35,216 nt of DNA from a virus. Below the pieces are notes generated by a model. The model was given only the letters and a program-made list of their open reading frames with translations, searched no databases and was not told the origin of the DNA. The stretch lies in IMG/VR virus record IMGVR_UViG_3300033109_000080. One strand, written 5' to 3'. This document shows, one piece after another, positions 1-35,216 of the stretch. Within the stretch, counting starts at the first letter, position 1; each line of letters opens with the position of its first letter. The position numbers and the translations under genes are program-made.

Positions 1-239
1 CCGCCTCGAGGGCCAGCGCCCCTGAAGGGACGCAGCTCGAGGGCGGGGTGCTGGTCCCGTCGACGGGCTTCGGCGGGCCACCGGCGCGCGGCACGCGCGA
101 GCTCATCGCTGCCTATAAGACCGAGCCCTGGCTGCGGGCGGTCACTGGGCGCATCGCCCGCGGCGTCGCCGCGGCGACCTGGACCGTGTACGCCAGGAGC
201 TCGACCCCGGCGCCGACGTCGAACGCGCGCTCGCGCGGC
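1..239. repeat. Terminal direct repeat, copy 1 (identical to 34978..35216); overlap of a circular assembly, unit length 34,977 bp
   Basis: Compared base by base: 1-239 equals 34978-35216. The repeat lies inside the portal ORF, so it marks a closure overlap rather than a biological boundary. Confidence 0.95.
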
Positions 240-1502: not shown

Positions 1503-1810
1503 GGCTGACCGAGCGCCAGGCCACGTTCTGGACCCACCGCGCCGATCGCCGCGGCATGGGCCTCCACTTCCGCTGCCCGTGCTCGCCGGGCTGTGACCGG
1601 GTCATCTCGGTGCCCTTCGAGAATCCGGTCGATGGTGGCGGGCCAGAGCCGAGCGCGCAGGTGACCTGGCACCGCACCGGCGAAACGCTCGAGACGCTGA
1701 CGCTCACGCCAAGCATCGACTTCCGGCACGTCGCCGGCGACTTCGATCCAACGCCCGCGGGCTGGCACGGCTGGGTGCGCGACGGCGAGCTCGTCAACGC
1801 GGGTGGCTGA
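1499..1810 (+). CDS. Small zinc-ribbon protein (CPC..GC, TLTPSI, HGWVRDGELV motifs; resembles DUF6527-type small phage proteins)
   Basis: The GTG at 1499 overlaps the portal stop (GTGA) and is in frame with ORF 1442..1810. The motif pattern FRCPCSPGC ... TLTLTPSI ... WHGWVRDGELV is recalled from small phage proteins. The family assignment is from memory only. Confidence 0.55.
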   Translation: MRLTERQATFWTHRADRRGMGLHFRCPCSPGCDRVISVPFENPVDGGGPEPSAQVTWHRTGETLETLTLTPSIDFRHVAGDFDPTPAGWHGWVRDGELVNAGG

Positions 1811-1812
1811 GC

Positions 1813-2022
1813 GTGCCCCGCGTGATCAGCGCAGATCCGATGGCGGCCGCAGCTCTGAGAGCGGACGCTGTCACCGCGCTCGACGAGGTCCGCACGAGCA
1901 AGCGCCCCCCCATGTCGCCTCTCGAGGCGCTCGCCGTCTACAGAATCGCGAACGGCGAGGCGGTGAAGTTCCTCGGCCGCTGGTCGCTCTCCGCCGGGCT
2001 CGCACAGGAGGCCGTGCTGTGA
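1813..2022 (+). CDS. Hypothetical protein (69 aa)
   Basis: ORF with a GTG start 3 nt after the previous stop. Its stop overlaps the next GTG (GTGA). No recognisable motif. Confidence 0.45.
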   Translation: MPRVISADPMAAAALRADAVTALDEVRTSKRPPMSPLEALAVYRIANGEAVKFLGRWSLSAGLAQEAVL

Positions 2023-4203: not shown

Positions 4204-4890
4204 ATGACGATGGTCCGGCGCGAGCTCGCGGTCCTTCCGGTGGCGGCGGATGCCGCCGCGGCGAAGTCCCGGGTGCGCCGCTTCATCGCCAGCACCGACA
4301 CGCTCGACAGCCACAACAGCAAGATCAACCCCGACGGCTGGGAGCTCGAGCGCTTCAAGCGCAACCCGGTCATCCCGCTCTTCCACGCCTCGCGCGGGTT
4401 CCCGATCGGCAAGGGGCTCGACATCGGAGTCGTCGACCGCAAGCTGCAGCTCGGCATCGACTTCGCCCCGGCAGACGATCCGGTGGTGGGCGCGGACGCC
4501 GAGCAGGCGCTGCGCTGGATCGACCGCGGCGTGATGGCGGTCTCCGTCGGCTTCCACCCGCTCGAGGCCCAGGTCGCCGAGGATCGGTTGACCGGCGACC
4601 CGTGGGAAGATCTCTTCAACCCGCCCATCGACTACCTCCGGCAGGAGCTGCTCGAGGTGTCGATCGTCGCCATCGGCAGCAACCCCGACGCGTTGCCGCT
4701 GGGCCGCGAGCTGGTGGCCCGGGCCGCGCCGCGGACGCGGGTCGCCTGCGTCGCCGAGCTCGCGAAGCTCACCGCGGCCGCGGGCGAGCGCGTGCTGTCG
4801 CCAGACGAGCTGCGCCGGCTCGTCGCCGACGTCTTCAAGCAGTTGCGCGCCGATGCGGCGCGTCGCCGGGGCACCATCTCAGGAGGGTAA
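4204..4890 (+). CDS. Prohead maturation protease (HK97 / S78-U35 type)
   Basis: RRFIASTDTLDSHNSKINPDGW ... PLFHASRGFPIGKG ... GVMAVSVGFHPLE matches the layout of HK97-type prohead proteases. It lies immediately upstream of the major capsid gene. An alternative in-frame GTG is at 4177, inside the conserved element. Confidence 0.85.
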   Translation: MTMVRRELAVLPVAADAAAAKSRVRRFIASTDTLDSHNSKINPDGWELERFKRNPVIPLFHASRGFPIGKGLDIGVVDRKLQLGIDFAPADDPVVGADAEQALRWIDRGVMAVSVGFHPLEAQVAEDRLTGDPWEDLFNPPIDYLRQELLEVSIVAIGSNPDALPLGRELVARAAPRTRVACVAELAKLTAAAGERVLSPDELRRLVADVFKQLRADAARRRGTISGG

Positions 4891-4894
4891 CCAC

Positions 4895-6202
4895 GTGGAG
4901 ACCGTTTCCGTGAACATGACCGAGCTGAAGTCCATCATCCGCGACGCGGTCGCCGGCGAGATGAGCTCGCGCATGGAGGAGGCCACTGGCCGCGCGGTGA
5001 GCGAGGCCAAGAAGGCGGCGGCGGACCCGGCCGTGTTCCGCGAGATGCTGGACCGCGCGAAGGCCGCGGTCTCCACCACCGATCTCCCGCGCGCGACCGT
5101 CGACCGCACCACGCTGCAGGTCATCCACGATCCGCTCAAGGGCAAGGGCCTCAGTTTCGCCCGCTCCGTAAAGGCGATGGTGGTCGGCATCCTCGACCGC
5201 TGCTCGCCCGCCGACGTCGCCCGCGCCTGGGCGGCCAAGGGCTTCGCGCAGTACGAGGAGATCGCCGTCGCGCTCGACGCGCAGGCGCGCGCCTTCCTCA
5301 CCGGCGCCGCGGCGTCGGGCGGCACCCTCGTGCCCACGGCCCAGGCGGCCGAGGTCATCGAGCTGCTCTACCCGCGGACGGTCGCGCTCGTCTCCGGCGT
5401 CCGGACGATGGAGTTCACCGGCGCGGTCAACCTCGGCAAGATCAACAGCGGGGCGACCATCGGCTACACCGGTGAGGCCGGGCTGATGACGCCGAGCCAG
5501 CCGGGCACCGGCGAGCTGCGGATGTCGGGCAAGAAGGCGTACGGCCTGGTGCCCGTCTCGAACGAGATGCTCCGCAACCCGGCCGTGGGCGCCGACGCCC
5601 TCATCCGCGACGACCTGCTCAAGGCCCTCGCGGTCCGCCGCGACCTCAGCTTCTACCGCGGCGCCGGCAACACCTTCCAGCCGAAGGGCATGAAGGGCTG
5701 GATCAACAGCGCGAACTCGAACGCGATGACGGGCACGCCCACCGCCGCGACGAAGATCGCCGACCTGGTGAAGGCCATCGGCCTGGTCGACGGCGCCGAC
5801 GTGCAGCTCGATGAGTCGGCCGGCTTCGTCATGGCGCCCCGCACGCACTGGGCGCTCGTCGGCACCACCGACGCGAACTCGAACCTGCTCTTCGCGGCCA
5901 TGCTGGCGGCCGGGCAGCTCTTCGGCTTCATGTGCCGCCGGACCAGCTCGATCCCGACCAACCTCGGCGGGGGCACCGAGTCTGAGGTCTACTTCGGCTC
6001 GCACGGCGACGCGATCCTCGGCTTCGATCTCGCCAACCCGCTGCAGGTCGAGGCCTTCCCGAACGGGACGTACCACGACGGCTCCGCGCTCGTGTCGGGC
6101 ATCAGCACCGACATGACCCCCATCCGCATCCTCGAGGGCCACGACGTCGTGCTGCGGCACGACAAGGCCTTCGCGATGATCACCGGCGTCACCTGGGCCT
6201 AA
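4895..6202 (+). CDS. Major capsid protein (HK97 fold) with an N-terminal coiled-coil delta/scaffold region
   Basis: AGGAGGG at 4881-4887 lies 7 nt before the GTG at 4895. It encodes 435 aa after the protease, with a charged helical N-terminus followed by a Gly/Ala-rich body typical of HK97-family capsids. Confidence 0.9.
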   Translation: METVSVNMTELKSIIRDAVAGEMSSRMEEATGRAVSEAKKAAADPAVFREMLDRAKAAVSTTDLPRATVDRTTLQVIHDPLKGKGLSFARSVKAMVVGILDRCSPADVARAWAAKGFAQYEEIAVALDAQARAFLTGAAASGGTLVPTAQAAEVIELLYPRTVALVSGVRTMEFTGAVNLGKINSGATIGYTGEAGLMTPSQPGTGELRMSGKKAYGLVPVSNEMLRNPAVGADALIRDDLLKALAVRRDLSFYRGAGNTFQPKGMKGWINSANSNAMTGTPTAATKIADLVKAIGLVDGADVQLDESAGFVMAPRTHWALVGTTDANSNLLFAAMLAAGQLFGFMCRRTSSIPTNLGGGTESEVYFGSHGDAILGFDLANPLQVEAFPNGTYHDGSALVSGISTDMTPIRILEGHDVVLRHDKAFAMITGVTWA

Positions 6203-6767: not shown

Positions 6768-7052
6768 ATGCCCGAGCTCGTCGTCCTCCAGCTGTCGAAG
6801 CACTACAAGAACAACATCGCCGGGGAGATCGCCTCCTTCCCGCCGGACGTCGCCGCTCACATCATCAAGGCGGACGGCGGCACGAAGCTGGCGGAGCTCG
6901 ACCGCGACCAGCGCTACGACGTCGCCACCAAGAAGGTGGTGCCCATCGAGAAGAGCAACCCGGCCGACGTCGCCGAGCTCAAGGCGAAGCTGGCGAAGGC
7001 GACCCAGCTCGTCGCGGACCTCGAGCGCCAGCTCGCGACGAAGCCGAAGTAG
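6768..7052 (+). CDS. Hypothetical protein (94 aa, Lys-rich coiled-coil C-terminus)
   Basis: ORF with an ATG start in the head module. No recognised motif. Confidence 0.55.
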   Translation: MPELVVLQLSKHYKNNIAGEIASFPPDVAAHIIKADGGTKLAELDRDQRYDVATKKVVPIEKSNPADVAELKAKLAKATQLVADLERQLATKPK

Positions 7053-14083: not shown

Positions 14084-16756
14084 GTGCGAGCCATCTCCGC
14101 TGCCCAGGCGCCCTACCTCGCCACGCCCGCGCGGAGCGCCCTCGCCAGGGTGCTGGTGAAGGACGCCGGCGGCACGTGGAGGGACTTGACGAGCTACCCG
14201 GGCTACGACGCCGTGAAGGCCGTTGAGTGGGGCGAGGACATCGACTCGAACGGCATGCAGGCCACCATCCGCCTCGTGCGCGCGATGGGGAATCGCAGCC
14301 TCGCGCCGCTCGTCTATGGTTCGCCTGTCAACAAAGGCTTCGCGCCGGCGGGGAGCTGGTCACCTGTGGTGTACCCGACGCGCGAGGTCAAGATCGACTG
14401 GACCCTCGTCGTCGCCGGCGCCCTCCCGCTCTCCCTGGGCACCGATCCGACGAACACCTGGGTCACCGGCTTCCATGGCTACATCGACCGGGTCGAGACC
14501 TCGCCGGACGAGGTGACGGTGCAGGCCCGAGGCCTCGAGGCGCGCCTGATGGCCCCGAAGGGCGTCTTTCGCCGGGAGAAGGTCTTCTCCTACGCCCAGG
14601 GCAGCGGCGCCAACTCGCGCGGAGTGCGCCTCTTCGAGGTCTCGACGGCCTACGTGTTGAACGAGCTCGTCGCGCCCTCGAGCGAGGCCCTCAACGACCA
14701 CTGGTACAAGGTCACCACCGCGGGCACCACCGCGGCGACGGAGCCCACCTGGCCCACCGGCTCAGGCAGCACCGTGACGAGCGGCACCTGCACCTTCACC
14801 GAGCAGGGCTCCGGGAGCGCGAGCGCAGGCACCGCGGTCGAAACGGTGATGCAGGCCCTCCTCGACGACGTGCTCGGCGCCGGCGTCGTGTCGCTGTCGA
14901 CTCCGAGCTCGCCGAGCTGGGCCGTCACCTGGTGGCTCCAGAAGCGGGTGCCTCTCTGGGACGCGCTCCGCATGCTCGCGGACCAGATCGGCTGGGATCT
15001 CCGCTACCGCTGGGACGCGGGCAGCTCGAGCTTCAAGCTCACCTTCGCGGCAGTCCCCCGCTCGAAGACGACCCCCGACTACACCTTCGCCCCGGGTGAG
15101 CAGCTCCAGCTCGAGCCGCTGGCTGTCGATGCGACGGGCATCCGCAACGTCGTGCAGGTCGTCTACTCCGACAACGCCGACCTCGACGCAGAGCACGTGG
15201 CGAAGCGCAAGACGGTGACGGTGAGCGACTCCGCGAGCATCGCGGACCTGGGCGAGCAGTGGATGGAGCTCGCCGAGGACTCGAGCTCGAACATCGGCAG
15301 CACGAGCGAGGCGACGGCGATGGCGAACGCCATCCTCTCGGATCTGGCGGCGCCGGCGGCGGAGTGGGGCGGCACCACCCTCTTCTTCCCCTGGGTCGAG
15401 CTCTCGGATCTGCTGCAGCTCGACCCGAGCAACGTCGCCGGGGAGTGGGTGGGGCTCACCGACGCCTCGCAGAAGCTGGCCGTCACCTCCTGGAAGCACG
15501 CCATCACCCAGACGACGGCCCGGACGAGCTTCGCCCTGCGAGGCAAGCCGGCCTCCGGGGCCAATCGCTGGCTCGGGCGCGACAGCTCGACCCTGCGACA
15601 GGACGACAACCACCAGCTTCAGACGCTCACCGCGGCGGCCGCGGCGAGCATCTCGGCCACCGAGGTAGTCGGCGGCACGCGGCTCTTCGAGGTGGGGAAC
15701 GGCATCGGCGGCCGCTCGAGGGAGCGGAAGACGGAGTGGCACGTCTCGGCGGCCTCGGGCTTCACCCCGGACTCGACGACTCTGCGGGGCCGCGGCTCGC
15801 ACTGCACCGTCGGCGACCTGATCCCGGGTGAGACCTACTACCTGCGGCGGGTCGGGGCCGAATCGAACTCGGAGCGGAAGGTCATCAGCCTGCCTTCCCC
15901 GCAGACCTCCTTCGTCGCCGGCCGTGCCTCGGCCGGGCACCTCAACAGCGACGTGATGGTCGGGCGGCTGCCGCTCAACGGTGGCTTCGAGACGCTCCTG
16001 CAGGCGGCGGCGGTGGGCCCTCCCGATCACTGGTCCGTTGTCGATGGGGCATGGAACGACGACCTGCAGGTCATCTCTGACGCCAACGGCCACAGCGGAG
16101 CGAACTGGCTGAAGTTCGTCGCGAAGACTCACGCGCAGTCGATCCACTCCGACTACTTCCATGTCGAAGCCGGCCACATCTACTCGCTGCGGGCATGGGG
16201 GAAGGGCGTCAGCGGCACCTCGAAGCTGCTCAACGTCGTGATCGAGTGGTTCACGAACGCCAAGGCCTCGGAGTCCACCAGCGCCACGCTCGTGCAGTTC
16301 GACTGCTCCACGACGACCTGGAGCGAGAAGCGCGCCTTCGTCACCGCCCCCTCGAGCGCGCGCTTCGGCCGGGCGAAGATCGCGAAGGCGACCGCGACCG
16401 ACGATGCCTCGTGGGGAATCGACTCGGTGGCTGTCGAGGACTGTGGAGAGGCCTTCATCGCCCCCACGCTCCTCAACTCGTGGCTCGACTACGGCTCGTC
16501 GAACGACCCCACCGGCTACCGGGGAGAGGCCGGCGGGAGGGTCCGCATTCGGGGCTGCGTGAAGTCCGGGACGGTCGGCGCCGGCACCCCGGTCTTCCAG
16601 TTGCCGGCCGCGTACCGCCCCGCCAAGAACAAGAGCTTCGACATCCCCACCGACACCGGGCGAGGCGTGCTCAACGTTCTCTCGGGCGGCAACGTGGAGA
16701 TCGCGAGCGGCGGCAACGGCTGGGCGTACATCGACTGCGCCTTCAACGTCTGGTGA
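14084..16756 (+). CDS. Tail tip / host-specificity (receptor-binding) protein with C-terminal carbohydrate-binding-like modules
   Basis: 890 aa and the last structural ORF. The segment NGGFETLL...HWSVVDGAWN...GANWLKFVA...YSLRAWGKG...IDSVAVED resembles CBM4/9-type jelly rolls. The final 100 aa or so (LLNSWLDYG...VRIRGCVKSG...FQLPAAYRP...) resemble fibre-tip knobs. Confidence 0.65.
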   Translation: MRAISAAQAPYLATPARSALARVLVKDAGGTWRDLTSYPGYDAVKAVEWGEDIDSNGMQATIRLVRAMGNRSLAPLVYGSPVNKGFAPAGSWSPVVYPTREVKIDWTLVVAGALPLSLGTDPTNTWVTGFHGYIDRVETSPDEVTVQARGLEARLMAPKGVFRREKVFSYAQGSGANSRGVRLFEVSTAYVLNELVAPSSEALNDHWYKVTTAGTTAATEPTWPTGSGSTVTSGTCTFTEQGSGSASAGTAVETVMQALLDDVLGAGVVSLSTPSSPSWAVTWWLQKRVPLWDALRMLADQIGWDLRYRWDAGSSSFKLTFAAVPRSKTTPDYTFAPGEQLQLEPLAVDATGIRNVVQVVYSDNADLDAEHVAKRKTVTVSDSASIADLGEQWMELAEDSSSNIGSTSEATAMANAILSDLAAPAAEWGGTTLFFPWVELSDLLQLDPSNVAGEWVGLTDASQKLAVTSWKHAITQTTARTSFALRGKPASGANRWLGRDSSTLRQDDNHQLQTLTAAAAASISATEVVGGTRLFEVGNGIGGRSRERKTEWHVSAASGFTPDSTTLRGRGSHCTVGDLIPGETYYLRRVGAESNSERKVISLPSPQTSFVAGRASAGHLNSDVMVGRLPLNGGFETLLQAAAVGPPDHWSVVDGAWNDDLQVISDANGHSGANWLKFVAKTHAQSIHSDYFHVEAGHIYSLRAWGKGVSGTSKLLNVVIEWFTNAKASESTSATLVQFDCSTTTWSEKRAFVTAPSSARFGRAKIAKATATDDASWGIDSVAVEDCGEAFIAPTLLNSWLDYGSSNDPTGYRGEAGGRVRIRGCVKSGTVGAGTPVFQLPAAYRPAKNKSFDIPTDTGRGVLNVLSGGNVEIASGGNGWAYIDCAFNVW

Positions 16757-19150: not shown

Positions 19151-19483
19151 ATGCGACCTCTCGAGATGGCGGTGGTGATGTGCGTGATCAGTGGCTGCGC
19201 TGCCTTGGCCGAAGAGCAGGCTCGGAGGGACGCGGAGCGACGCGAGCAGCTCCTCCGGAATGCCGCCGATTCCCAGGAGCGAGCCCGAAAGCAGAAAGAG
19301 CAGGACGAGCTCAGACGACAGGCATTGGCAGTCGAGTTCGGCGGAGTCGATGCGACCGCAGCTGGGACTTCGACGATCACCGGACAAGCGTTCCTCCGCA
19401 CGCGAGGGGGGGAGGTCAGGACGGCTGCTGGTATGGAGGTGATCATGCTGCTGAAGACGCGCGGCTCTAACTCGCCGACGTAG
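19151..19483 (+). CDS. Lipoprotein (lipobox VISGC) in a lower-GC moron
   Basis: MRPLEMAVVMCVISG|C fits a signal peptide plus lipobox, followed by a charged coiled region. GC is visibly lower than in the flanks. An alternative ATG is at 19166. Confidence 0.6.
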   Translation: MRPLEMAVVMCVISGCAALAEEQARRDAERREQLLRNAADSQERARKQKEQDELRRQALAVEFGGVDATAAGTSTITGQAFLRTRGGEVRTAAGMEVIMLLKTRGSNSPT

Positions 19484-23450: not shown

Positions 23451-24776
23451 ATGGCCCGCCTCTTCCATCGACCGGGTGACTCCACCTGGTGGCTCGACTT
23501 CACCGACGCGGCCGGGCGTCGGCGTCGCGTGAAGACGGACACCACTTCGAGGCGGGCCGCGGAAGATCTCCTCGCGGAGCTCCGCGCCAACCGCCGGCGG
23601 GAGTCCCTCGGCCTCGAGGCGACCACCAGCTCAGCGATCTCCACCGTCGCCCAGGCCTGGCGCCTCTGGCTCGAGCGGTGGTGCCCCGAGGCGTCCGCGC
23701 CCCGGGAGTGGCGCAGGTACCGGGCGAACATCGAGAAGTCCTGGTTCGGCCAGGAGCGCCTGACGCGCCTCACCGGTGAGCAGCTCGAGCGGTGGTTCGG
23801 CGAGAAGGTGAAGGCCGGCCAGGCGCCCCGCACCGTCAACGGCCACCGCACCATCCTGCGCCGGGTCGTCAACTGCCTCATCCAACGCCGGCTCTTCCGC
23901 GGCCTCAACCCGGTGCGCGAGACGAGGCCCCTGCAGGTCCCTGAGTACGCCTACCAGGTGCTCACCGAGGACGAGCTCCACCGCGTGCTGCCGCACCTGC
24001 CGGGCGAGTGGCGCGACGTCGTCGAGCTCGCCTTCACCGCGGGCCTGCGGCGAGGGGAGATCTACGCCCTCCGGAAGGACCGCGCCGTTCTGGACCTCGA
24101 GCGCGGCATCCTCACCCCGCGCGCGAGCAACGCCCGGCCGATGCCCAAAGGCCGCCGAATCCTCTCCATCCCCCTGACACCGGAGTCGCGGTCCGTGCTC
24201 GAGCGCGCCTGGGAGCGGACGCGTCCGGGCGAGCTGCTCTTCCCGGGCGTCGACGGGCAACTCCGGAGCGAGAACCTGAGGCCCTCGGAAGCCCTCAGGA
24301 GCGCGATGGGCCGCGCGGGGCTGGTCGAGGGCTGGCTGCACACCTGTCGGTGGCGCTGTGGGGTTCAGCAGCGTCACGATGACGAGCAGCAGCGTCGGTG
24401 CCCGAAGTGCGGGCGGCTGCTCTGGCCGAAGGCGCTCGTGCGGCGGGTGCGGTTCCACGACTTGAGGCACTCGACGGCCAACCACCTCCTCGACCGCGGG
24501 GTGCCGCTCGAGGACGTGCAGCTCTACTTGCGGCACTCCACCATCGCGATCACCGCCCACACCTACCGGCACCGCACCGTCGAGGCCCTGCGCAAGGCGG
24601 TCACCTCGCTGAGCCCTGAGCAGCTCGAGCGGCACCTCGACTCGCTCGCGCGCGGGCAGCCGGCGCACGTCCAGGCGCTCCTCCGAGAAACCGCCGCGAA
24701 ACTGGCACTTTTCAGGCACCAGCCCCTTGCACGAGGGGCCCTCAAACCAGCCAAATCCAACCGAAAGGCGAGGTAG
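23451..24776 (+). CDS. int: Tyrosine recombinase / phage integrase with an inserted CxxxC...CxxC zinc ribbon
   Basis: Catalytic signature AFTAGLRRGEI (Arg), FHDLRHSTAN (H-x-x-R), LRHS and AHTYRH (Tyr). The insertion is CRWRCGVQQRHDDEQQRRCPKCG. Lies adjacent to a tRNA-like sequence. Confidence 0.92.
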   Translation: MARLFHRPGDSTWWLDFTDAAGRRRRVKTDTTSRRAAEDLLAELRANRRRESLGLEATTSSAISTVAQAWRLWLERWCPEASAPREWRRYRANIEKSWFGQERLTRLTGEQLERWFGEKVKAGQAPRTVNGHRTILRRVVNCLIQRRLFRGLNPVRETRPLQVPEYAYQVLTEDELHRVLPHLPGEWRDVVELAFTAGLRRGEIYALRKDRAVLDLERGILTPRASNARPMPKGRRILSIPLTPESRSVLERAWERTRPGELLFPGVDGQLRSENLRPSEALRSAMGRAGLVEGWLHTCRWRCGVQQRHDDEQQRRCPKCGRLLWPKALVRRVRFHDLRHSTANHLLDRGVPLEDVQLYLRHSTIAITAHTYRHRTVEALRKAVTSLSPEQLERHLDSLARGQPAHVQALLRETAAKLALFRHQPLARGALKPAKSNRKAR

Positions 24777-24987: not shown

Positions 24988-25566
24988 GTGAGCCAGGCCT
25001 TCGCGGACCGGCTCAAGAAGTTCCCGCCGATGGGATGGCGGGTCCGAAAGCTCGTGCCGGGAGATCAGCCGCAGCTCGATGTCTCGAAAGGCGGACCGGC
25101 GGTGCTCGAGATCGACGGGATCGGCCTGGCGATTGGCGCGCACGATGCCTTGCTCTCGCTGATCGGCACCTGGGAGTGCTTCCGCGTCCTCGGCTGCATG
25201 CGCGATCTGATGATGGAGGCTCGTACCGTCGGGCGGTCGGAAGAGGTCCATGCGTTGCTGCTCGCGCTGATCACGAGCGGCTGCGAGGAGGCTGACCGGG
25301 CAATCCGTGAGGTGGAGGCCGGCATGCGTGCGGAGGAGTCGCGCGCGAAGGGCGAGGGCACGGCGAACTTCCCATGGGCGCTCTACGATCCGAAGGGCCG
25401 CATGCACTGCGCCGGCGCCGAGGACGGTGAGCCGACCTACGGCATGGCGTGGAGCGACTGTCTGGCGGCGATGCGGCTGGTCGCGCTCCGCGGCGCCAAG
25501 TCGATCGCGCGCATGGACGCGCTCGAGCGCAAGCGGCCCTCCGAGATCCGCTGGAGGGCCGCGTGA
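24988..25566 (+). CDS. Hypothetical protein (192 aa), first gene downstream of the putative attP
   Basis: GGGGG precedes the GTG at 24988, which is in frame with ORF 24925..25566. Lower GC than the structural genes. No motif recognised. Confidence 0.5.
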   Translation: MSQAFADRLKKFPPMGWRVRKLVPGDQPQLDVSKGGPAVLEIDGIGLAIGAHDALLSLIGTWECFRVLGCMRDLMMEARTVGRSEEVHALLLALITSGCEEADRAIREVEAGMRAEESRAKGEGTANFPWALYDPKGRMHCAGAEDGEPTYGMAWSDCLAAMRLVALRGAKSIARMDALERKRPSEIRWRAA

Positions 25567-27086
25567 CCAGGCTCCTCAGCGTCGACCTCTTCGCAGGAGG
25601 CGGCGGGGCCTCGCTGGGAATGAGCGAGGCCCTCGGCTCTCCGGTCGATGTCGCGATCAACCACTCGCGGACCGCGATCGCGGTCCATCGCGCCAACCAC
25701 CCGCAGACGAGGCACCTGACCACCGACATCTTCTCACCGGAAGCCAGGCCCAGCCTGGTGATCGGGAATCGCCGAGTGGGAGATCTCTGGGCGAGCCCCG
25801 ACTGCACCGATCACTCCAACGCGAAGGGAGGCGTGCCGAACCGAGAGGAGGGAAAGGACACCAGGTTCCTCGCGTGGGTCGTGGTCGACTGGGCGCGCGA
25901 GGTGCGGCCCGAGCGGATCTACCTCGAGAACGTGCCCGAGTTCGAGAAGTGGGGGCCGATCATCGAAGTGCAGGGCAAGCGCCGCCGCGATCCGGCCCGA
26001 CTGGGCCAGACCTTCAGGCAGTTCGTCGGCTCGCTCGAGCTGCTCGGCTACCAGGTGGAATGGCGCACGCTGACCGCCTGCGACTACGGCGCGCCGACGA
26101 AGCGGCGTCGGCTCTTCTTGATCGCCAGGTGCGACGGGCTGCCGATCCGGTGGCCCGAGCCAACACACGGGCCCGGCTTGTTGCCGTACCGGACGGCGGC
26201 CGAATGCATCGACTGGAGTATTCCCTGCCGCTCCATCTTCGGGCGGCGGCGGCCGCTCGCCGAGAAGACGATGTGGAGGATCGCGCAAGGGCTCCGTCGA
26301 TTCGTCTTCGAGAACCCAGAGCCCTTCATCATCCAGGTGAACCACGGCCGCTGGGAAGATCGCAGCGCGTCGATGCACCAGCCGCTCTCGACGGTCACCG
26401 CCAGTCGTCGAGGGCACGCCCTCGTCGCCCCCGTCCTGATTCACAGCGGGAATGGCGAGCGCACGGGCCAGCGCGCTCGGACGTACGACCTGCACGAGCC
26501 TCTCGGGACGGTGATGGCCACCGGCCAGAAACACGCCTTGGTGATGGCGTTCCTGGCGAAGCACTTCGGCGGAGTGGTGGGACAGGAGCTGCCCAGGCCG
26601 ATGGGCACGGTGACGGCACGCGACCACCACAGCCTCGCCGCGGTGACGCTGGTGAACTACCGCGGCACGGACGAAGAGCACCCGGGGTGCTCGGACGTCG
26701 GGGGGCCCCTGCCAACGATCACCGCGCGCGGCACCCATGTCGCCGAGGTTCGCGCCTTCCTCACCGCCTACTACGGCGAGGATCACGCGCCCGGGTGTGG
26801 GCAGCCCCTCACTGCGCCGATGCGGACGCTCACCGCTCGGCAGCGGTTGGGCCTGGTGACCGTCGACGGGATCGACAAGCAGATCTGCGACATCGGTCTC
26901 CGCATGCTGCGCGCGCACGAACTCAAGGCGGCGCAGTTCGGGCGCTTCGCCGCTGCCTACGACCTGAGCGCAGCGCGGACTCAGGAGGCCCAGGTGATGC
27001 TGATCGGGAACAGCGTTCCGCCCGAGGTCGCCCAAGCCGTCGTCAGGGCGAACACCTGCGGCCAGAGAACTCGGAGGGCTGCGTGA
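25563..27086 (+). CDS. DNA (cytosine-5)-methyltransferase
   Basis: Motif I DLFAGGGGASLG, motif IV SPDCTDHSNA (PC-type catalytic Cys), motif VI ENVPEF, motif VIII DYGAPTKRRRLFLIA, motif X LIGNSVPP. GTG at 25563 (GTGA overlap). Confidence 0.9.
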   Translation: MTRLLSVDLFAGGGGASLGMSEALGSPVDVAINHSRTAIAVHRANHPQTRHLTTDIFSPEARPSLVIGNRRVGDLWASPDCTDHSNAKGGVPNREEGKDTRFLAWVVVDWAREVRPERIYLENVPEFEKWGPIIEVQGKRRRDPARLGQTFRQFVGSLELLGYQVEWRTLTACDYGAPTKRRRLFLIARCDGLPIRWPEPTHGPGLLPYRTAAECIDWSIPCRSIFGRRRPLAEKTMWRIAQGLRRFVFENPEPFIIQVNHGRWEDRSASMHQPLSTVTASRRGHALVAPVLIHSGNGERTGQRARTYDLHEPLGTVMATGQKHALVMAFLAKHFGGVVGQELPRPMGTVTARDHHSLAAVTLVNYRGTDEEHPGCSDVGGPLPTITARGTHVAEVRAFLTAYYGEDHAPGCGQPLTAPMRTLTARQRLGLVTVDGIDKQICDIGLRMLRAHELKAAQFGRFAAAYDLSAARTQEAQVMLIGNSVPPEVAQAVVRANTCGQRTRRAA

Positions 27087-27736
27087 GCGCCGCCCCTCCG
27101 CTCTCGCGGCATGAGGCTCTGCGAGCGCTCCTCTCCGACGGTCTGCCACATACTCAGGCCGAGCTGCGGGCCGTCGCTGGCTGGCGCTACGGCGCGCGCG
27201 TCCAGGAACTGCGCGAGCAAGGCCTCGACGTGCGCTGTGAGCGCGTCGCGGGCAGCACCAACGCCTTCCTCTTCCGGCTCGCCTCTGGCGGGCCTTCGGC
27301 GTCGCCCCGCGAGTCCCCCTGCGCGGCCGGCGACGCCATTTCTACGATGAGCGCGGCGGGGACGCTGATACCCGCCCGGGGTGAGGAGGTCGCTTCTCCT
27401 GTCGTCTCCCCGGCCTTGGCTGGCACCACTGAGGAGCAGGTTGGATTCCCGCCGCTCGTCTCTTTGCCCGCGGTGCCCGACCTGCCCTCGCCGTGGGATG
27501 CGGTGTTCGCCGGCCGGGCCTACGCCGGCTCGGACGTGCGGCACACGACCTCAAGCCGCCGTCCGGGCGTCGATGTCGTCGGGACCGTGCGCCGGCGGCG
27601 CCGGCAGCTCGAGCGATGCCCAGCGTGCGGCGGGTTGACTTACCCGCTCGACGGAGCACCGCACGCGGTCCGTTGGACCGAGCGCGGCGGACAGCACGTG
27701 CGCGTCGACTGCATCGGGCGTGAGGTGCGTCGATGA
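27083..27736 (+). CDS. Hypothetical protein: N-terminal winged-helix-like segment, C-terminal CxxC zinc ribbon
   Basis: GTGA overlap. LPHTQAELRAVAGWRYGARVQELREQGLDV resembles wHTH modules. RCPACGGLTYPLDG lies near the C-terminus. Confidence 0.5.
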   Translation: MSAAPPLSRHEALRALLSDGLPHTQAELRAVAGWRYGARVQELREQGLDVRCERVAGSTNAFLFRLASGGPSASPRESPCAAGDAISTMSAAGTLIPARGEEVASPVVSPALAGTTEEQVGFPPLVSLPAVPDLPSPWDAVFAGRAYAGSDVRHTTSSRRPGVDVVGTVRRRRRQLERCPACGGLTYPLDGAPHAVRWTERGGQHVRVDCIGREVRR

Positions 27737-28122
27737 CGCCGCGGCAGGAGCAGCTGATCCCCATGTGGCACTTGCCCGCCATCTCCATAAGGCGAGCTCC
27801 GCCGACCGGCCCACACGAAACGATGGTGACGGCGTGCGGTCACCGAGGACCCATTCGAGCCCGGGAAGACGTCGGAACTCGGCCCGCGCAAGGGACGCTG
27901 ATCGCCGTGGAGGAGATGGTCTGCGAGACATGCCTGGTGATGTGGGACCAAGCAGAGGAAACAGGGAAGTTCTTGCTGCGTTGGGTCAGCGACTTCACGC
28001 CGGAGTGGCGCGGACCGGGCGCCATCCTCTTCGCTCAACAGCCACACGTACTCTGCGTGAAGTGCAACCGCGGCTATGAGCGCCGCGGGTATCGGCCCGT
28101 CGCCGTGGTGGTGCGTCCTTGA
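27733..28122 (+). CDS. Hypothetical Cys-rich protein (129 aa), lower GC
   Basis: ATGA overlap. Contains CETC...CVKC pairs. Codon usage is less GC-biased than in the neighbouring genes. Confidence 0.5.
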   Translation: MTPRQEQLIPMWHLPAISIRRAPPTGPHETMVTACGHRGPIRAREDVGTRPAQGTLIAVEEMVCETCLVMWDQAEETGKFLLRWVSDFTPEWRGPGAILFAQQPHVLCVKCNRGYERRGYRPVAVVVRP

Positions 28123-29097
28123 GCTCGACGCCCTTCACTCTCCTCGTCGGCGATGCCCGTACGCGGCTTCGCCAGCTCGCGGCCGAGTCGGTGCAGTGCT
28201 GCGTCACATCGCCTCCGTACTGGAGAATGCGCGACTACGGGCACCGGCGGCAGGTCGGCCTCGAGAAGTCGCCGGAGGCGTACGTTGCGCGGCTGGTGAC
28301 GGTCTTCGCCGAGGTGCGCCGCGTGCTGCGCTCGGACGGGACGCTCTGGCTCAACGTCGGCGACTCCTACGCGTGCTCGGGCAAAGGCTCGACCGGCAAG
28401 ACCTCCACTCTGACGAATCCCTCTCGCTACGAGGAGGCCTCGCTGCCGGGGCGCTCGAAGACGGGCGAGGGGCTCAAACGCAAGGACCTGGTGGGAATCC
28501 CCTGGATGCTCGCCTTCGCGCTGCGCACTGCTGGCTGGTACCTCCGCGCCGACATCATCTGGCACAAGCCGTCGCCGGTGCCCGAGTCGATTCTCGACCG
28601 GCCGACGAAGGCACACGAGCACGTCTTCCTCTTCTCACGACAGCCGCAGTACCTCTACCGCGCCGAGGCCATCGGCGAGGCCTTCCGAGAACCTCGCTAC
28701 GCCACCGCGGCGAGCATCGGGGCGAAGACCCGCGCTGTGGACCGCGAGTACCTGGAGCGGTCGACCCTCGCGCAACAGCCTCGGCGCGGTTGGGCGAACG
28801 CGCGCGATGTCTGGACGATCGCGACTGAGCCCTTCGCCGGCGCGCACTTCGCTCCGATGCCGACCGAGCTCGCGCGGCGGTGCATCGTCGCCGGAAGCGG
28901 GGGGGGGGCATCTCGTGCTCGACCCTTTCGCCGGTGCCGGCACGACCGGGCTGGTGGCGCTTCGCGAAGGGCGCCGGTTCCTTGGCATCGAACTGAACGC
29001 CGGCTACGCGCGCATCGCCCAGAAGCGCTGCCGAGAGATCACGCTCGGGTTGCCCCTCGACTCGTCCTCATCTGGAGAACTCCGTGACGCCGTGTAG
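28119..29097 (+). pseudogene. Beta-class N4-C/N6-A DNA methyltransferase (SPPY motif IV) interrupted by a +1 frameshift in a G10 tract
   Basis: The N-terminal frame (28119..) has TSPPYW, IIWHKPSPVPES, RPTKAHEHVFLFS and HFAPMPTELARRCIVAGS. Motif I, VLDPFAGAGTTG, continues in the +1 frame (ORF 28807..29097). The frames meet at GGGGGGGGGG (28899-28908); 9 or 12 Gs would restore one ORF. Confidence 0.8.
28899..28908 (+). repeat. Homopolymeric G10 tract at the methyltransferase frameshift point
   Basis: Counted directly from the sequence: gcGGGGGGGGGGca. Confidence 0.9.
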
Positions 29098-29335
29098 CCC
29101 GACGCTGCGGCAGCTCGACTACCTGAGGGCGATCGATCGCGCCTGGTTGGAGCTCGGCTACGCCCCGAGCATCCGCGAGCTCGGTGACACCCTCGGGATC
29201 GGCAGCACCAACGGCGTGGCCGAGGGGCTGAAGGCGCTCGAGCGCCGCGGCTTGGTGACAAAAGCGCGCGGGGTCGCCCGCAGCCTGCGGCTCACCACCC
29301 AGGGCCGGCTCTGGATCACGAAGGAGGCTACCTGA
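29084..29335 (+). CDS. LexA N-terminal DNA-binding-domain-only protein (winged helix; no S24 peptidase domain)
   Basis: LRQLDYLRAIDRAWLELGYAPSIRELGDTLGIGSTNGVAEGLKALERRGLVTKARGVARSLRLT matches the LexA_DNA_bind pattern (LT.rQ..vl.fI......GyPPsvREi......S...v..hL.aLe.kG.i.r....aR.i.l). Only 83 aa long. Confidence 0.75.
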   Translation: MTPCSPTLRQLDYLRAIDRAWLELGYAPSIRELGDTLGIGSTNGVAEGLKALERRGLVTKARGVARSLRLTTQGRLWITKEAT

Positions 29336-31260: not shown

Positions 31261-31688
31261 TCTCTCAGGCCCTGCGGGTGCGGATGGAGGCGCTCGAGGC
31301 GATCGCGTCGATGGACCCGCGCATCGTGCTGCGACTGCCGCTCCGCGTCGTCTCTCGAGGGAATGCGCGGTGGCATTGGGCTCGGCACGGCGAGCATTCG
31401 GCTCGGCACCGCCGGGCAGCGCATCTGGTGTGCCTCTCCCGCAGGGTCGAGCTGCGGCGGCTTCTCGCGCGAGGGCTCGTGGTGCGCGTCGTGCGGATCG
31501 CGCCGCGCTCCCTCGATACGCACGACAACCTCGGGACGGCCCTCAAGCCGATCGTGGATGGGGTCGCCGATGCGCTGGGCCTGGTTGATGACTCCGATGA
31601 GCGCGTGCGCTTCATCCCCGACGCCGAGCGAGGAGGCGTGCGCGAGGAGCTTGTGCGCCTCGAGTTCTACCCGCGGAGGGTCCGCTGA
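31257..31688 (+). CDS. rusA: RusA-like Holliday-junction resolvase
   Basis: RSLDTHDNLGTALKPIVDGVADALGLVDDSDERV parallels E. coli RusA [29 protein letters not shown] (D-x-D-N-L..K...D...DD). Start uncertain: GTG at 31257, or ATG at 31284 or 31311. Confidence 0.6.
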   Translation: MISQALRVRMEALEAIASMDPRIVLRLPLRVVSRGNARWHWARHGEHSARHRRAAHLVCLSRRVELRRLLARGLVVRVVRIAPRSLDTHDNLGTALKPIVDGVADALGLVDDSDERVRFIPDAERGGVREELVRLEFYPRRVR

Positions 31689-32767
31689 TGAACCTGGTCG
31701 ACGTCCTCGAGGGCCGCGCGCGCTGGGCGGTGCTCCATGGCGATTGCCGCGAGGGATTGCCGCTCCTTCCTTCGGGTTCGGTGGATGTTGCAGTGACCGA
31801 TCCGCCCTACAGCCATCACGTGCACTCGAAGCAGCGACGCATGCTGCGTGGGGGCGGTCGCCGCGGTGGTTCCGAGATCGGCTATGCGCCGCTCGGGTTC
31901 GAGGCGCTCGATGAGCAGACCCGCAGCCTGGTCGCGGGCCACCTGGGCAGGCTCGTACGACGCTGGTGCCTGGTGTTCAGCGACGCGGAGCACTGCTACC
32001 GCTGGCGCGAGGAGCTCGCCGATGCAGGCCTGCGACACGTGCGCGAGGGGGCCTGGGTCAAGCTCAACGGTCAGCCGCAGCTCTCGGGAGATCGGCCCGC
32101 CGTGGGTCACGAAGCCATCGAGATCGCGCACGGCCAGGTGAAGTGCCGATGGAGTGGAGGAGGCCTGCCAGCCCTCTGGGCGCACGCGATCGCGACCGAT
32201 CGCAACGGCACAGGCGCGCGGGTGCACACGACGCAGAAGCCGCTCGAGCTGATGCTGCGGTTGGTCGAGCAGTTCTCTGAGCCGGGCGAGCTCGTCCTCG
32301 ATCCGTTCGCCGGCGCCGGCACAACGGGCATTGCCTGCCTGCGACTCGGACGGAGGTACCTGGGCTGGGAGATCGACGAGCACTACGCCCAGGTCGCGCG
32401 AGAGCAGCTCCTCGCCGAGTCACGCGGTCTGACGATGCTCGAGGCGCGCGCCGGGCAGACGTCGCTCTGGGACTCGGAGCGGCCAGTACCAGAGCCGCCG
32501 CCGCAGCGTGAGTTCCTCGAGCGGCCCAACGGCCTGAGCTCAGACAAGATCCGCCGCATCGCCCAGCTCCGAGGTGAGGGGCTCTCACTTGCGGTGATCA
32601 GCGAGCGGCTCGGCGTCCACCCGAACACCGTGCACCGCCACCTGCAGCGCGCCGGGCTGGTGCGCAAGCGGTGGTGCTCGTGCGGTCGCCGGCTCAGGGG
32701 CGACGAGCCTCTCTGCTACACCTGCCGCGGCTACAGGCCGAACGGGCGCTTCGGCTTCGCGCGGTAG
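31688..32767 (+). CDS. Beta-class N6-adenine-type DNA methyltransferase (DPPY) fused to a C-terminal HTH and zinc ribbon
   Basis: VAVTDPPYSH (motif IV), HTTQKPLELM, LVLDPFAGAGTTG (motif I). The C-terminal extension contains IRRIAQLRGEGLSLAVISERLGVHPNTVHRHLQRAG and CSCG...CYTC. Confidence 0.85.
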   Translation: MNLVDVLEGRARWAVLHGDCREGLPLLPSGSVDVAVTDPPYSHHVHSKQRRMLRGGGRRGGSEIGYAPLGFEALDEQTRSLVAGHLGRLVRRWCLVFSDAEHCYRWREELADAGLRHVREGAWVKLNGQPQLSGDRPAVGHEAIEIAHGQVKCRWSGGGLPALWAHAIATDRNGTGARVHTTQKPLELMLRLVEQFSEPGELVLDPFAGAGTTGIACLRLGRRYLGWEIDEHYAQVAREQLLAESRGLTMLEARAGQTSLWDSERPVPEPPPQREFLERPNGLSSDKIRRIAQLRGEGLSLAVISERLGVHPNTVHRHLQRAGLVRKRWCSCGRRLRGDEPLCYTCRGYRPNGRFGFAR

Positions 32768-32891: not shown

Positions 32892-33683
32892 CACCATGGA
32901 GCCGTGCCGCCGAAGGTCGCCAAGAAGCGCTGCGCGCGCTGCCGCAAGTCGAAGCCGGTGAAGGGCTGGCCGCCCAACGCCGCTCGAGCAGACGGCCTGG
33001 GCATCTACTGCCGCCAGTGCAAGCGCGAGGCGGACCGCGGCGCGCCGCCCCCGAAGCCCAGATGGAACCGGCCCGCGTCGAAGGCGCCTCCCGGTGGAGA
33101 CGCGCCGAAGCGCAAGCCCGGCCCGGCCTCGAAGCTCACGCCCGAGCTCGTCGAGCAACTCTGCGCCGTGCTGCGCAAGGGGCACACCTACCGCGCGGCG
33201 TGCGCGCGCTCGGGCATCGACGATCGGACCTTCCGCGACTGGATGGCCGAGGGCCTCGAGGCGCGCACCGGGCCGAAGTGGGGGCTCTACCTCGCGGTGC
33301 GAGAGGCCGAAGGCGAAGGCGAGGCCTCGCTGACCGACATCGTCCGGGACGCCGCGGAGATCGATCCGCAGTACGCGAAGTGGCTGCTCGAGCGCCGTCA
33401 CCCCGTCGACTGGGCGCGCAAGGAGCAGATCGCCGTCACCGGCGGCGAGGGCAAGGCCCTGGAGGTGTCGGTTGTCCGAGAGCTCATCAGCAAGCGGATC
33501 GACGGTCTCCTCGCGGCTCGCCCAGCAACTCCGCCGAGTGGAGGAGCAGGCGGTGCTGGCGGACCAGCTCCAGGAGGCGGGGCAGGCGCCGCCATTGCCG
33601 AAGGTGCTGCGACTCCACCACCGCCTGCAGCTCCTGACGCCGGCGGAGAAGCAGAACCTCCTGGAGGCGCTGAGCGAAGCTGA
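32877..33683 (+). CDS. terS: Terminase small subunit (N-terminal zinc ribbon, HTH, Gly/Ala/Pro-rich tail)
   Basis: Immediately upstream of terL. LTPELVEQLCAVLRKGHTYRAACARSGIDDRTFRDWM is a typical TerS HTH. CARC...CRQC lies at the N-terminus. Start is the GTG at 32877 or at 32904. The 3' end overlaps terL by 212 nt. Confidence 0.65.
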   Translation: MKASAHHGAVPPKVAKKRCARCRKSKPVKGWPPNAARADGLGIYCRQCKREADRGAPPPKPRWNRPASKAPPGGDAPKRKPGPASKLTPELVEQLCAVLRKGHTYRAACARSGIDDRTFRDWMAEGLEARTGPKWGLYLAVREAEGEGEASLTDIVRDAAEIDPQYAKWLLERRHPVDWARKEQIAVTGGEGKALEVSVVRELISKRIDGLLAARPATPPSGGAGGAGGPAPGGGAGAAIAEGAATPPPPAAPDAGGEAEPPGGAERS

Positions 33684-34917
33684 GCTCGTCGCGCTCCTGT
33701 ATGACTGGACGGGCGCGTGGGCGCGCGACTCCCAGCTCATCCCCGCGGGCGACTGGTTCGTCTGGCTCATCCTCGCCGGCCGCGGCTACGGGAAGACGCG
33801 CACGGGCGCCGAGAGCGTGCGGCACCTGGCCGAGACGGGGCAGGCGCGGCGGATCGCCCTCATCGCGCCGACCTCCGCTGATGCCCGCGACGTGATGATC
33901 GAAGGCGAGTCGGGGCTGCTCGCGGTGTGCCCGCCCTCGGCGATGCCGAGGTATGAGCCCTCGAAGCGGCGCCTCACCTGGCCCAACGGCGCCCGCGCGA
34001 CGCTCTTCTCGGCCGAGGAAGGGAGCCGACTCCGCGGGCCCCAGCATGATCTGCTCTGGGGCGATGAGCCGGCGAGCTGGACGGACGAGTCCACCTGGCG
34101 GAATGCGGTGATGGGTCTGCGGCTGGGCCGGCAGCCGCGGGCGATTCTCACCGGCACGCCACAGCCGGTGCCGTTGATCTTGAGCCTGATGAAGGACCCG
34201 AAGACGCACCTCACCCGCGGGTCCACCTTCGAGAACGCAGGCAACCTCGCGAGCGAGTACATCCGCCAGGTGCAGCGCATGTACGCCGGCACGCGCATCG
34301 GCCGGCAGGAGCTCGAGGCCGAGGTGCTCGAGGACGTCGTCGGGGCGCTCTTCAACCAGGCCCTCATCGACAAGCACCGCGTCGAGAAGGCGCCGGACCT
34401 CGCCCGGATCGTCGTCGCGGTCGATCCAGCGCAGACGGGGACTGAACGCGCCGACGAGTCGCAGAAGCACAACGACGAGCACGGGATCGTCGTGTGCGGC
34501 AAGGATCTCGAGAGCGAGGACGCGCACGGCTACGTGCTCGCGGACCTCTCGATGCGCGGCAGCCCCGACGAGTGGGCCCGCGCCGCGGTGAAGGCGTTCT
34601 ACACGTTCCGCGCGAACTGCGTCGTCGTGGAGTCGAACTGCGGCGGCGAGATGGTCGAGGCGACGATCCGCACCATCGACGCCTCGGTGCCCGTGAAGAT
34701 CGTCCGCGCCATGCGCGGCAAGGCCAAGCGCGCCGAGCCCATCGCCGCGCTCCACGAGCAGGGCCGGATTCACCACGTCGGAGTCGAAGGGCTCGAGAAG
34801 CTCGAGAAGCAGATGCGCGTCTTCACGGGGGCGAACGGGCGCCGCGACGACAGGACGGACGCGATGTGCTGGGGCTTCCACGATCTGCTCGTCGGCGGCG
34901 GCTTCTTCTTCGGGTGA
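33472..34917 (+). CDS. terL: Terminase large subunit
   Basis: LLYDWTGAWARDSQLIPAGDWFVWLILAGRGYGKTRTGAE contains the Walker A motif GRGYGKT. The layout is an ATPase followed by a nuclease-like C-terminus. GGAGG (33461-33465) sits 6 nt before the TTG at 33472; later GTGs at 33538, 33553 and 33604 are also possible starts. Confidence 0.9.
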   Translation: MSESSSASGSTVSSRLAQQLRRVEEQAVLADQLQEAGQAPPLPKVLRLHHRLQLLTPAEKQNLLEALSEAELVALLYDWTGAWARDSQLIPAGDWFVWLILAGRGYGKTRTGAESVRHLAETGQARRIALIAPTSADARDVMIEGESGLLAVCPPSAMPRYEPSKRRLTWPNGARATLFSAEEGSRLRGPQHDLLWGDEPASWTDESTWRNAVMGLRLGRQPRAILTGTPQPVPLILSLMKDPKTHLTRGSTFENAGNLASEYIRQVQRMYAGTRIGRQELEAEVLEDVVGALFNQALIDKHRVEKAPDLARIVVAVDPAQTGTERADESQKHNDEHGIVVCGKDLESEDAHGYVLADLSMRGSPDEWARAAVKAFYTFRANCVVVESNCGGEMVEATIRTIDASVPVKIVRAMRGKAKRAEPIAALHEQGRIHHVGVEGLEKLEKQMRVFTGANGRRDDRTDAMCWGFHDLLVGGGFFFG

Positions 34918-34940: not shown

Positions 34941-35216
34941 ATGGGCCTCCTCGGCCGCATCGCCGGTCTCTTCCGCCCCGCCTCGAGGGCCAGCGCCCCT
35001 GAAGGGACGCAGCTCGAGGGCGGGGTGCTGGTCCCGTCGACGGGCTTCGGCGGGCCACCGGCGCGCGGCACGCGCGAGCTCATCGCTGCCTATAAGACCG
35101 AGCCCTGGCTGCGGGCGGTCACTGGGCGCATCGCCCGCGGCGTCGCCGCGGCGACCTGGACCGTGTACGCCAGGAGCTCGACCCCGGCGCCGACGTCGAA
35201 CGCGCGCTCGCGCGGC
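34941..35216 (+). CDS. Portal protein N-terminus (continues at position 3 after circular closure; the last 239 nt duplicate 1-239)
   Basis: ATG at 34941. MGLLGRIAGLFRPASRASAPEGTQLEGGVLVPSTGFGGPPARGTRELIAAYKTEPWL... runs in frame into the ORF at 48..1502. Confidence 0.85.
   Translation, partial: MGLLGRIAGLFRPASRASAPEGTQLEGGVLVPSTGFGGPPARGTRELIAAYKTEPWLRAVTGRIARGVAAATWTVYARSSTPAPTSNARSRG
34978..35216. repeat. Terminal direct repeat, copy 2 (identical to 1..239)
   Basis: Base-by-base identity with 1-239. Confidence 0.95.

Follow-up and report, generated by a model that had tools for sequence, protein, structure and literature searches.

How should a methyltransferase gene be read when its two halves lie in different reading frames and meet exactly at a run of ten Gs? 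The question is raised by a viral DNA stretch of 35,216 nucleotides (IMG/VR record IMGVR_UViG_3300033109_000080), and the whole of this stretch is referred to as the window throughout this paper. A preliminary description, made from the letters of the window and its open reading frames (ORFs), had noticed that a G10 homopolymer splits an SPPY methyltransferase and had offered three options for it, namely a slipped-strand switch, a recoding site and a sequencing error. Here, these options and that of a plain pseudogene are weighed against the structure of the gene, the records of the phage, the relatives of the enzyme, and a survey of G tracts at the same site in other methyltransferases.

The interrupted methyltransferase gene

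The following features make up the locus:

28119..28898, + strand (frame 0): N-terminal 260 codons of the methyltransferase, with motif IV TSPPYW at 28206-28223 and the target-recognition region; PF01555 positions 1-179
28119..29087, + strand: ORF as encoded with G10, 322 aa, TTG start
28807-29097, + strand: frame +1 ORF with VLDPFAGAGTTG; PF01555 positions 181-221
28899..28908, + strand: G10 homopolymer with C on both sides, encoding the Gly-rich loop that immediately precedes strand beta-1 of motif I
28909..29097, + strand (frame +1): C-terminal 62 codons and stop of the methyltransferase, with the AdoMet-binding motif I VLDPFAGAGTTG at 28915-28950; PF01555 positions 181-221

The G10 tract is the longest homopolymer of the 35,216-base window, as the preliminary description had noted for G runs, and the runners-up are a G7 at 19406 and two C7 runs at 22664 and 1905. 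The two ORFs in frames 0 and +1 match PF01555 positions 1-179 and 181-221, respectively, which bears out the claim that one methyltransferase is split at the tract. With G10 the frame is left after residue 263, and the 322-aa product is truncated, lacks motif I and ends in an out-of-frame, Arg-rich tail of 59 residues. The preliminary description had also proposed that nine or twelve Gs would give one continuous enzyme, and this proved correct. The G9-corrected protein of 325 aa matches PF01555 (N6_N4_Mtase) over 1-221 of 221 positions with 152.7 bits (cut-off 26.7; E=1.9e-44). The in-frame G9 reads AGC GGG GGG GGG CAT, that is S-G-G-G-H, and gives the spacing AGS-5 residues-VLDPF that is found in intact homologues, while G12 adds one extra Gly. 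G8, G10 and G11 are out of frame.

The motif order in the corrected protein is that of the beta class, with TSPPYW (residues 30-35) ahead of FAGAG (residues 270-274), and the best solved relative is 2zie, the T. thermophilus protein TTHA0409 (VTSPPYW…VVLDPFAGTGTT; E=6e-23). Based on motif IV SPPY, the target-recognition domain and motif I FxGxG, the gene is predicted to encode a beta-class DNA methyltransferase that is Type II-like; SPPY is a motif more typical of enzymes that methylate N4-cytosine. The uninterrupted ORF that a beta-class methyltransferase should have is broken here by the +1 shift at G10, which sits 80% along the ORF. The locus shares with contingency loci a homopolymer of at least about 8 inside an ORF, the length of which toggles the reading frame.

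At both ends the 322-aa ORF overlaps a neighbour: its TTG start with the stop of the ORF before it (TTGA), and its TGA with the GTG from which the next gene starts (GTGA). The second overlap was considered as a sign that G10 is the functional state, and it was judged to be probably coincidental at 70% GC.

The phage genome and its probable host

The window carries a 239-bp exact terminal overlap, which leaves a unique genome of 34,977 bp, and its GC content is 70.5%. It is a complete temperate phage genome of about 35 kb, circular or terminally redundant. The recognised genes of the window lie on the + strand throughout and are, apart from the split methyltransferase itself and with its upstream neighbour added, as follows:

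48-1502, + strand: portal
1803-3110, + strand: Kelch-repeat protein
4853-6202, + strand: HK97-type capsid
14084-16756, + strand: tail protein
23451-24776, + strand: tyrosine integrase
25449-27086, + strand: C5 cytosine methyltransferase
27733..28122, + strand: upstream ORF, 129 aa, no family match, with a 4-nt overlap with the methyltransferase start
29084..29335, + strand: LexA-DNA-binding-like repressor-type gene (PF01726; phrog_362), downstream of the split methyltransferase
31688-32767, + strand: second PF01555 methyltransferase, a fusion with HTH
33472-34917, + strand: large terminase

The split methyltransferase was classified by PADLOC as MTase_II (E=5e-99). No restriction endonuclease was found by PADLOC among its neighbours, and no res or hsd gene either; because an adjacent restriction endonuclease is missing, the enzyme is solitary. 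The best named relatives of the terminase come from a Polyangiaceae MAG (66% identity) and an Archangium MAG (58%), and for this reason the host is tentatively and probably a myxobacterium (Myxococcota). The window held no tRNA or attP clue to the host, and a search of IMG/VR for loci related to the window returned nothing above 53% identity.

Records of the phage and the reliability of G10

The phage is present in three records, namely the window, the JGI contig L001 and the Logan contig L174, which possibly all derive from one sample. L001 (JGI sample 3300040800, 35,104 bp) is 100% identical to the window over 6.9 kb and L174 (Logan SRR32497121, 8,263 bp) over 8.3 kb, G10 included in both cases, and the identical 322-aa product was called in the protein records P0005 (JGI) and P0121 (Logan SRR32497121). 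Exact look-ups of eight predicted products in a collection of 15 billion proteins found no G8, G9, G11 or G12 version. Tract-length polymorphism within the phage, as a contingency locus would have it, is thus absent from the three assembled records, which all carry G10, and since no other length variant of this phage is on record, G10 may be fixed in it.

The agreement of three G10 records from at least two pipelines (JGI and Logan) argues against a sequencing or assembly error, in which the true tract would be G9 (or G12) and the gene intact, even though length miscalls classically occur at long homopolymers and the data on this phage are all metagenome assemblies. The length of L001 equals 34,977 + 127 bp, which suggests that it is a circular contig of a k=127 short-read SPAdes-type assembly, where consensus errors at G10 would be uncommon. 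Length-dependent miscalling would give the same rise in the broken fraction with tract length as that described below for other loci, but the independently deposited genomes of the BPP-1 family vary in like manner. In addition, all other window genes that were examined or translated are unbroken ORFs, homopolymers of 5-7 not having been singled out among them. An error at G10 is considered improbable.

Relatives of the methyltransferase and the Bordetella phage precedent

Six intact homologues with 69-79% identity were obtained in the protein search (P0001-P0004, P0006 and P0007), together with a further truncated one (P0008) on contig L002 (JGI 3300072491). This contig comes from a different metagenome, has a different gene neighbourhood and shares 77% nucleotide identity with the window. 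It carries G10 at the same site (6779-6788) with the same +1 break, so that gene calling gave two PF01555 ORFs (266 and 55 aa). Contig L173 (P0123, Logan SRR24299697), which is 87% identical to L002 in nucleotides, has G11 (980-990) and is in frame (AGTRGGGLVLDPF), so that the uninterrupted close homologues are seven in number (P0001-P0004, P0006, P0007 and P0123). In the remaining homologues the loop is encoded without a tract, for example as TCA CCA GGC GGC GGA in L003. Length and frame therefore differ among close relatives while the rest of the gene is intact, a further property of contingency loci. A frame-agnostic DNA pattern of the subfamily (WANARDVW…LDPF), which recovers the loci of the window and its relatives, had no match in the metagenome or genome contig collections.

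In a neighbour-joining (NJ) tree the window groups with the tractless P0001, apart from L002 and L173, and the three tract-bearers are monophyletic in 7 of 200 bootstraps. That the window and L002/L173 inherited the tract from a common ancestor was considered and is unsupported by this tree; because the tract-bearers do not form a clade, the tract would be either convergent or repeatedly lost. Against L002, the dN/dS ratio of the window amounts to 0.29 before the tract and 0.30 behind it, to be compared with 0.20-0.33 recorded for the N-terminal part and with 0.15-0.52 among intact genes, at dS of about 0.7-1.0. After the tract the window and L002 agree in 30 of 30 residues. The two halves of the gene are thus otherwise intact, look functional and are under purifying selection, and the downstream half has not drifted as a long-dead pseudogene would, since its dN/dS resembles that of intact-gene comparisons.

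According to a preprint of 2025 on contingency loci of phages (bioRxiv 10.1101/2025.10.21.683753), poly-G tracts were noted in the methylase of the Bordetella phage BPP-1 (Liu et al., 2004) and were never followed up. When tract lengths in this gene, bpm, were read directly from the GenBank records, the tract was G8 in BPP-1 and vB_BbrP_003, where the gene is in frame and intact (VMPGGVVLDPFAGSGTT), G9 in BIP-1 and G10 in BMP-1, where it is broken in both. In bpm the run of Gs codes for the Gly-Gly of VMPGGVVLDPFAGSGTT and lies at the same structural position as the window tract. Across the genomes of the BPP-1 family, which belong to cultured phages, date from the Sanger era and were deposited separately, the bpm sequences are otherwise 99.8-99.9% identical.

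Like the gene in the window, bpm is a solitary beta-class PF01555 gene of a temperate, GC-rich phage, with the tract immediately before VLDPFxGxGTT and with the same mechanism. However, bpm is a distant relative with DPPY (adenine) and 251 aa, in which the tract begins 2 nt ahead of the Val codon, whereas the window gene has SPPY, 325 aa and an in-frame G9, and is observed only in the broken state. The phages are unrelated, the BPP-1 type being a podovirus with a DGR and the window being siphovirus-like. A G tract in a phage-borne methyltransferase has thus been known since 2004 from BPP-1, and the present locus represents no new class of mechanism.

The relatives also bear on programmed recoding. 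In this reading G10 itself is functional, and ribosomes that shift by +1 on GGG-G, or an RNA polymerase that slips on the C10 template, would produce the full-length enzyme next to the truncated protein. The same out-of-frame G10 is found in two diverged phages (the window and L002), and the part downstream of the tract is under purifying selection, as this reading would have it. A run as long as the RNA:DNA hybrid permits realignment free of mismatches, and a G run resembles the Shine-Dalgarno sequence, a known stimulator of the +1 shift in prfB; the characterised cases of bacterial transcriptional slippage, on the other hand, occur at A or T runs. The +1 frameshifting of prfB and the transcriptional slippage in dnaX of Thermus and in IS elements resemble the window in the split between frames 0 and +1 at a slippery run, but they act at sites that orthologues share and that have defined stimulators, whereas the window site is not conserved. 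In a programmed frameshift both the site and the direction are conserved across orthologues; here the break is common only to the window and L002, L173 being in frame with G11 and the other orthologues tractless and in frame. Neither is the zero-frame context after the tract conserved, which shows no stop or common rare codon (the zero-frame stop is 7 codons on in L002 and 59 codons on in the window), and in BPP-1 the "on" state is a plain in-frame G8. Programmed recoding is accordingly given a very slim chance.

G tracts before motif I in other methyltransferases

Tracts of G8 or longer were scanned for at a distance of 0-9 nt from [VI]-L-D-P-F-x-G-x-G-T, a pattern that demands an intact motif I. 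The scan yielded 85 viral contigs, 54 bacterial/archaeal genome contigs and at least 120 metagenome contigs, that is at least 259 loci, and after near-identical flanks were merged, 213 lineages remained among the matches listed. Frames were called by ORF length, which is ambiguous in some high-GC loci; a subfamily-specific HMM reached only a minority of the survey loci, and ORF-length calling was used in its place. The broken lineages among the matches listed were distributed over tract lengths as follows:

G8: broken in 12 of 91 lineages (13%)
G9: broken in 19 of 54 lineages (35%)
G10: broken in 20 of 27 lineages (74%)
G11: broken in 3 of 4 lineages (75%)

At G10 and longer, 26% of the lineages among the matches listed are intact, and the frames are about random, in which case two-thirds would be expected to be broken. 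A rise of the broken fraction with tract length is also expected from sequencing error.

Tract length differs within 5 of the 37 multi-member clusters of near-identical sequences among the matches listed; examples are a G11 broken against a G13 intact, and a G8 intact against a G9 and a G10 broken. The part after motif I was an intact ORF of normal length in all 59 of the broken genes whose end is on the contig (minimum 41 codons and median 53, with a median of 50 in intact genes), and 33 of these 59 genes came from genomes below 55% GC, again among the matches listed. Because the downstream part is intact in 59 of 59 cases, the breaks at the tract before motif I appear to be young or reversible. 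Among 79 homologues picked regardless of the tract, the longest G run at the site was 2-5.

Chance, codon usage and selection

A G10 or C10 run appeared in 15 of 100 dinucleotide-preserving shuffles of the window. In synonymous-codon resampling, a run of at least 9 appeared anywhere in the coding sequence in 151 of 300 replicates, and in the split methyltransferase gene in 7 of 300. The argument that G10 is compositionally improbable was dropped, as it was not significant in the shuffles and the resampling. The tract owes its meaning to where it lies in this gene, at a site with variable G tracts in other methyltransferases.

Selection for the tract was sought in codon choice, with 120 arbitrary phage genes for the peptide Gly-Gly-Val-[Val/Ile]-Leu-Asp-Pro-Phe as the control and with the remaining Gly codons of each ORF as the source of the expectation. 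Of the 240 focal Gly codons, 35 were GGG, against 45 expected, and 6 of 120 genes had GGG at both, against 5.2 expected; one gene of the 120 had G8 or longer. In these 120 phage genes there is no GGG enrichment that would indicate selection for the tract, as might be looked for in a contingency locus, and the argument that recurrence at the site implies a selected switch was withdrawn after this negative control. G tracts recur at the site because the conserved Gly-Gly-Val reads GGNGGNG, together with ordinary codon usage. The codon control leaves the mutational mechanism intact, and from about G8 slippage takes over.

The absence of any codon-level favouring of the tract is among the observations that suit a dead-end pseudogene, in which the same slippage occurred, the methyltransferase was dispensable, and G10 is a fixed, recent inactivating mutation with no role as a switch. 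G10 is the sole length recorded for this phage, which has two other methyltransferases (the C5 enzyme and the second PF01555 protein), and the near-random frames at G10 and longer (26% intact among the matches listed) look as if the "on" state were not strongly selected. Old pseudogenes should, however, gather further lesions, and no second lesion was found in either half of the gene in the window, in L002 or in the 59 of 59 other broken genes among the matches listed. Furthermore, relatives with longer tracts are in frame (G11 in L173; G13 in L117 and L252), which indicates that frames are regained. We regard a dead-end pseudogene as unlikely.

A probable slippage-prone on/off site

The G10 tract is most likely a slippage-prone on/off site that was caught in the "off" state. 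We assign a probability of roughly 0.6 to the reading that this solitary beta-class methyltransferase was turned off by slippage from G9 to G10, that reversion is to be expected, and that the gene is probably phase-variable in practice. The Gly-rich loop just before motif I is encoded as a G homopolymer, and replication slippage (slipped-strand mispairing) would have lengthened the in-frame G9 to G10. The 322-aa product without the AdoMet-binding motif would then leave the gene "off". A tract of this length would be hypermutable, so that G9 revertants (or G12 variants) should be frequent, and the switching would result in methylated and unmethylated subpopulations of phage or lysogens. Reversion to G9 would be expected because tracts at the same site shift the frame in relatives and in phages of the BPP-1 type, with both halves of the gene intact.

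Among the three options of the preliminary description, slipped-strand mispairing is therefore the best supported, by the relatives, the BPP-1 family and the intact halves, although no length heterogeneity is recorded. What the sequences show is the tract, the geometry of the frames, two intact halves under purifying selection and free of second lesions, and variation in length and frame at the site among relatives and cultured Bordetella phages; a true G10 majority, frequent and reversible switching in this phage and any adaptive value of the switching are inferred. The more specific proposal of adaptive bet-hedging, which the preliminary description had put forward, is unproven; the codon-choice control was negative and gave no sign of selection for the tract.

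A further idea gives the "off" state a role of its own. The G10 state would have been kept in two non-sister lineages since both products matter, the truncated form, which retains the half with the catalytic motif and target recognition and is unable to bind AdoMet, as a predicted sequence-specific DNA-binding protein or regulator and a minority of full-length enzyme arising through DNA reversion or through RNA or ribosome slippage; in phages as well as in bacteria and archaea, beta-class methyltransferases would then have a built-in, convergent off-switch in the Gly-Gly-Val loop. This idea is very improbable.

Relation to known systems and implications

Phasevarions of Type III mod and Type I hsd genes resemble the slippage-prone site in the window in that a repeat in the ORF of a PF01555-type methyltransferase toggles the frame by slipped-strand mispairing, and in the predicted outcome of a population mixed for methylation. 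The genes of phasevarions, however, are chromosomal parts of Type III or Type I restriction-modification systems in host-adapted pathogens, with the repeat usually near the 5' end and with regulon effects shown, whereas the window has a solitary, Type II-like phage gene with the tract far along the ORF. Membership in a Type III or Type I system is at odds with the PADLOC class MTase_II, and the locus is not a phasevarion in the strict sense. The preliminary description had named Haemophilus, Neisseria and Helicobacter as cases of homopolymer switching in mod genes. This holds for Helicobacter, as modH of H. pylori has a poly-G tract, and not for Haemophilus and Neisseria, whose modA genes carry tetranucleotide repeats.

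Hypermutable homopolymers in phage ORFs have also been described elsewhere, namely homopolymers in T2/T4 (bioRxiv 10.1101/2025.10.21.683753) and, in Campylobacter Fletchervirus (Sorensen, 2021), poly-G tracts in receptor-binding genes. These contingency loci resemble the window tract in kind, and in them the frameshifts give reversible subpopulations. They concern receptor-binding or other targets and come with measured mutation rates, while in the window the target is a methyltransferase.

If the tract switches, the progeny of a temperate phage that infects a GC-rich soil bacterium would be a mixture of methylated and unmethylated particles, or lysogens with and without the extra epigenetic mark would arise, which is relevant to epigenetic heterogeneity among lysogens. 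Such switching would also bear on the escape from classical versus modification-dependent (Type IV) restriction. The locus provides a clean example from outside the world of pathogens. For annotators, GGNGGNG before motif I makes PF01555 genes prone to G-tract frameshifts, and "two-ORF methylases" should be read as one gene in the off state, neither as two genes nor as errors by default; among the matches listed in the survey, which was restricted to G8 or more at the site, the public assemblies show about three-quarters of the genes with G10 or longer in two pieces.

Methyltransferase genes in the complete phage genome

An exact 239-bp direct repeat is present at the two termini of the window (1-239 = 34978-35216), and the window is therefore a complete genome of 34,977 bp, circular or terminally redundant. 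The JGI contig, a second record of the same phage, is circularly permuted and has a size of 34,977 + 127 bp. This 35-kb phage carries three DNA methyltransferase genes inside 7.3 kb:

25449-27086, C5 cytosine methyltransferase (PF00145)
28119-29097, + strand, split beta-class methyltransferase (PF01555)
31688-32767, second PF01555 methyltransferase, with an HTH at the C-terminal end

No long homopolymer was found in the C5 gene or the second PF01555 gene.

G tracts in related methyltransferase genes

Tracts of G9-G11 were also detected in PF01555 genes of archaea and low-GC bacteria at the same site, i.e., the Gly-rich loop just before AdoMet-binding motif I, and all of these genes with a callable frame are frame-broken. 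The archaeal genes come from Methanomassiliicoccales and Methanomethylophilaceae MAGs (L180, L208, and L214), and the bacterial ones from Clostridia and Bacilli MAGs of 30% GC (L226 and L227). The tract lengths of the two bacterial loci differ, G9 in L226 versus G10 in L227, and their flanks are identical.

The closest intact homologue of the split methyltransferase, P0001 (79% identity; contig L006, Logan SRR29078145_52038), has no tract within its gene. A G9 run at L006 273-281 ends 2 nt 5' of the P0001 ATG, at the position expected for the ribosome-binding site, and could reflect another way, at the level of translation or transcription, in which homopolymers act on this gene family.

Junction with the downstream gene

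In the out-of-frame reading of the G10 gene, the stop codon is a TGA that shares bases with the GTG start codon of the downstream gene (GTGA, 29084-29087), as is typical of coupled genes. The correct frame runs on to 29097, 10 nt beyond the out-of-frame stop, and in the relatives L002, L003, L006, and L173 the 4-nt overlap belongs to the correct frame. With the genome at 70% GC, this overlap in the window is probably due to chance, but a prolonged stay of the gene at G10 would be compatible with it as well.

Other homopolymers and the Kelch-repeat gene

After G10, the longest homopolymers of the window are G7 (19406-19412) and C7 (22664-22670), and both fall in the region of about 18.7-23 kb, where gene calls from GC3 are few or overlap one another.

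A Kelch-repeat protein, which is unusual cargo in a phage head module, is encoded between the portal and capsid genes:

1803-3110, Kelch-repeat protein gene

Several of the Kelch families in Pfam match its product (lowest E, 6e-25), and a C7 run (1905-1911) lies directly 5' of an internal ATG of this gene.
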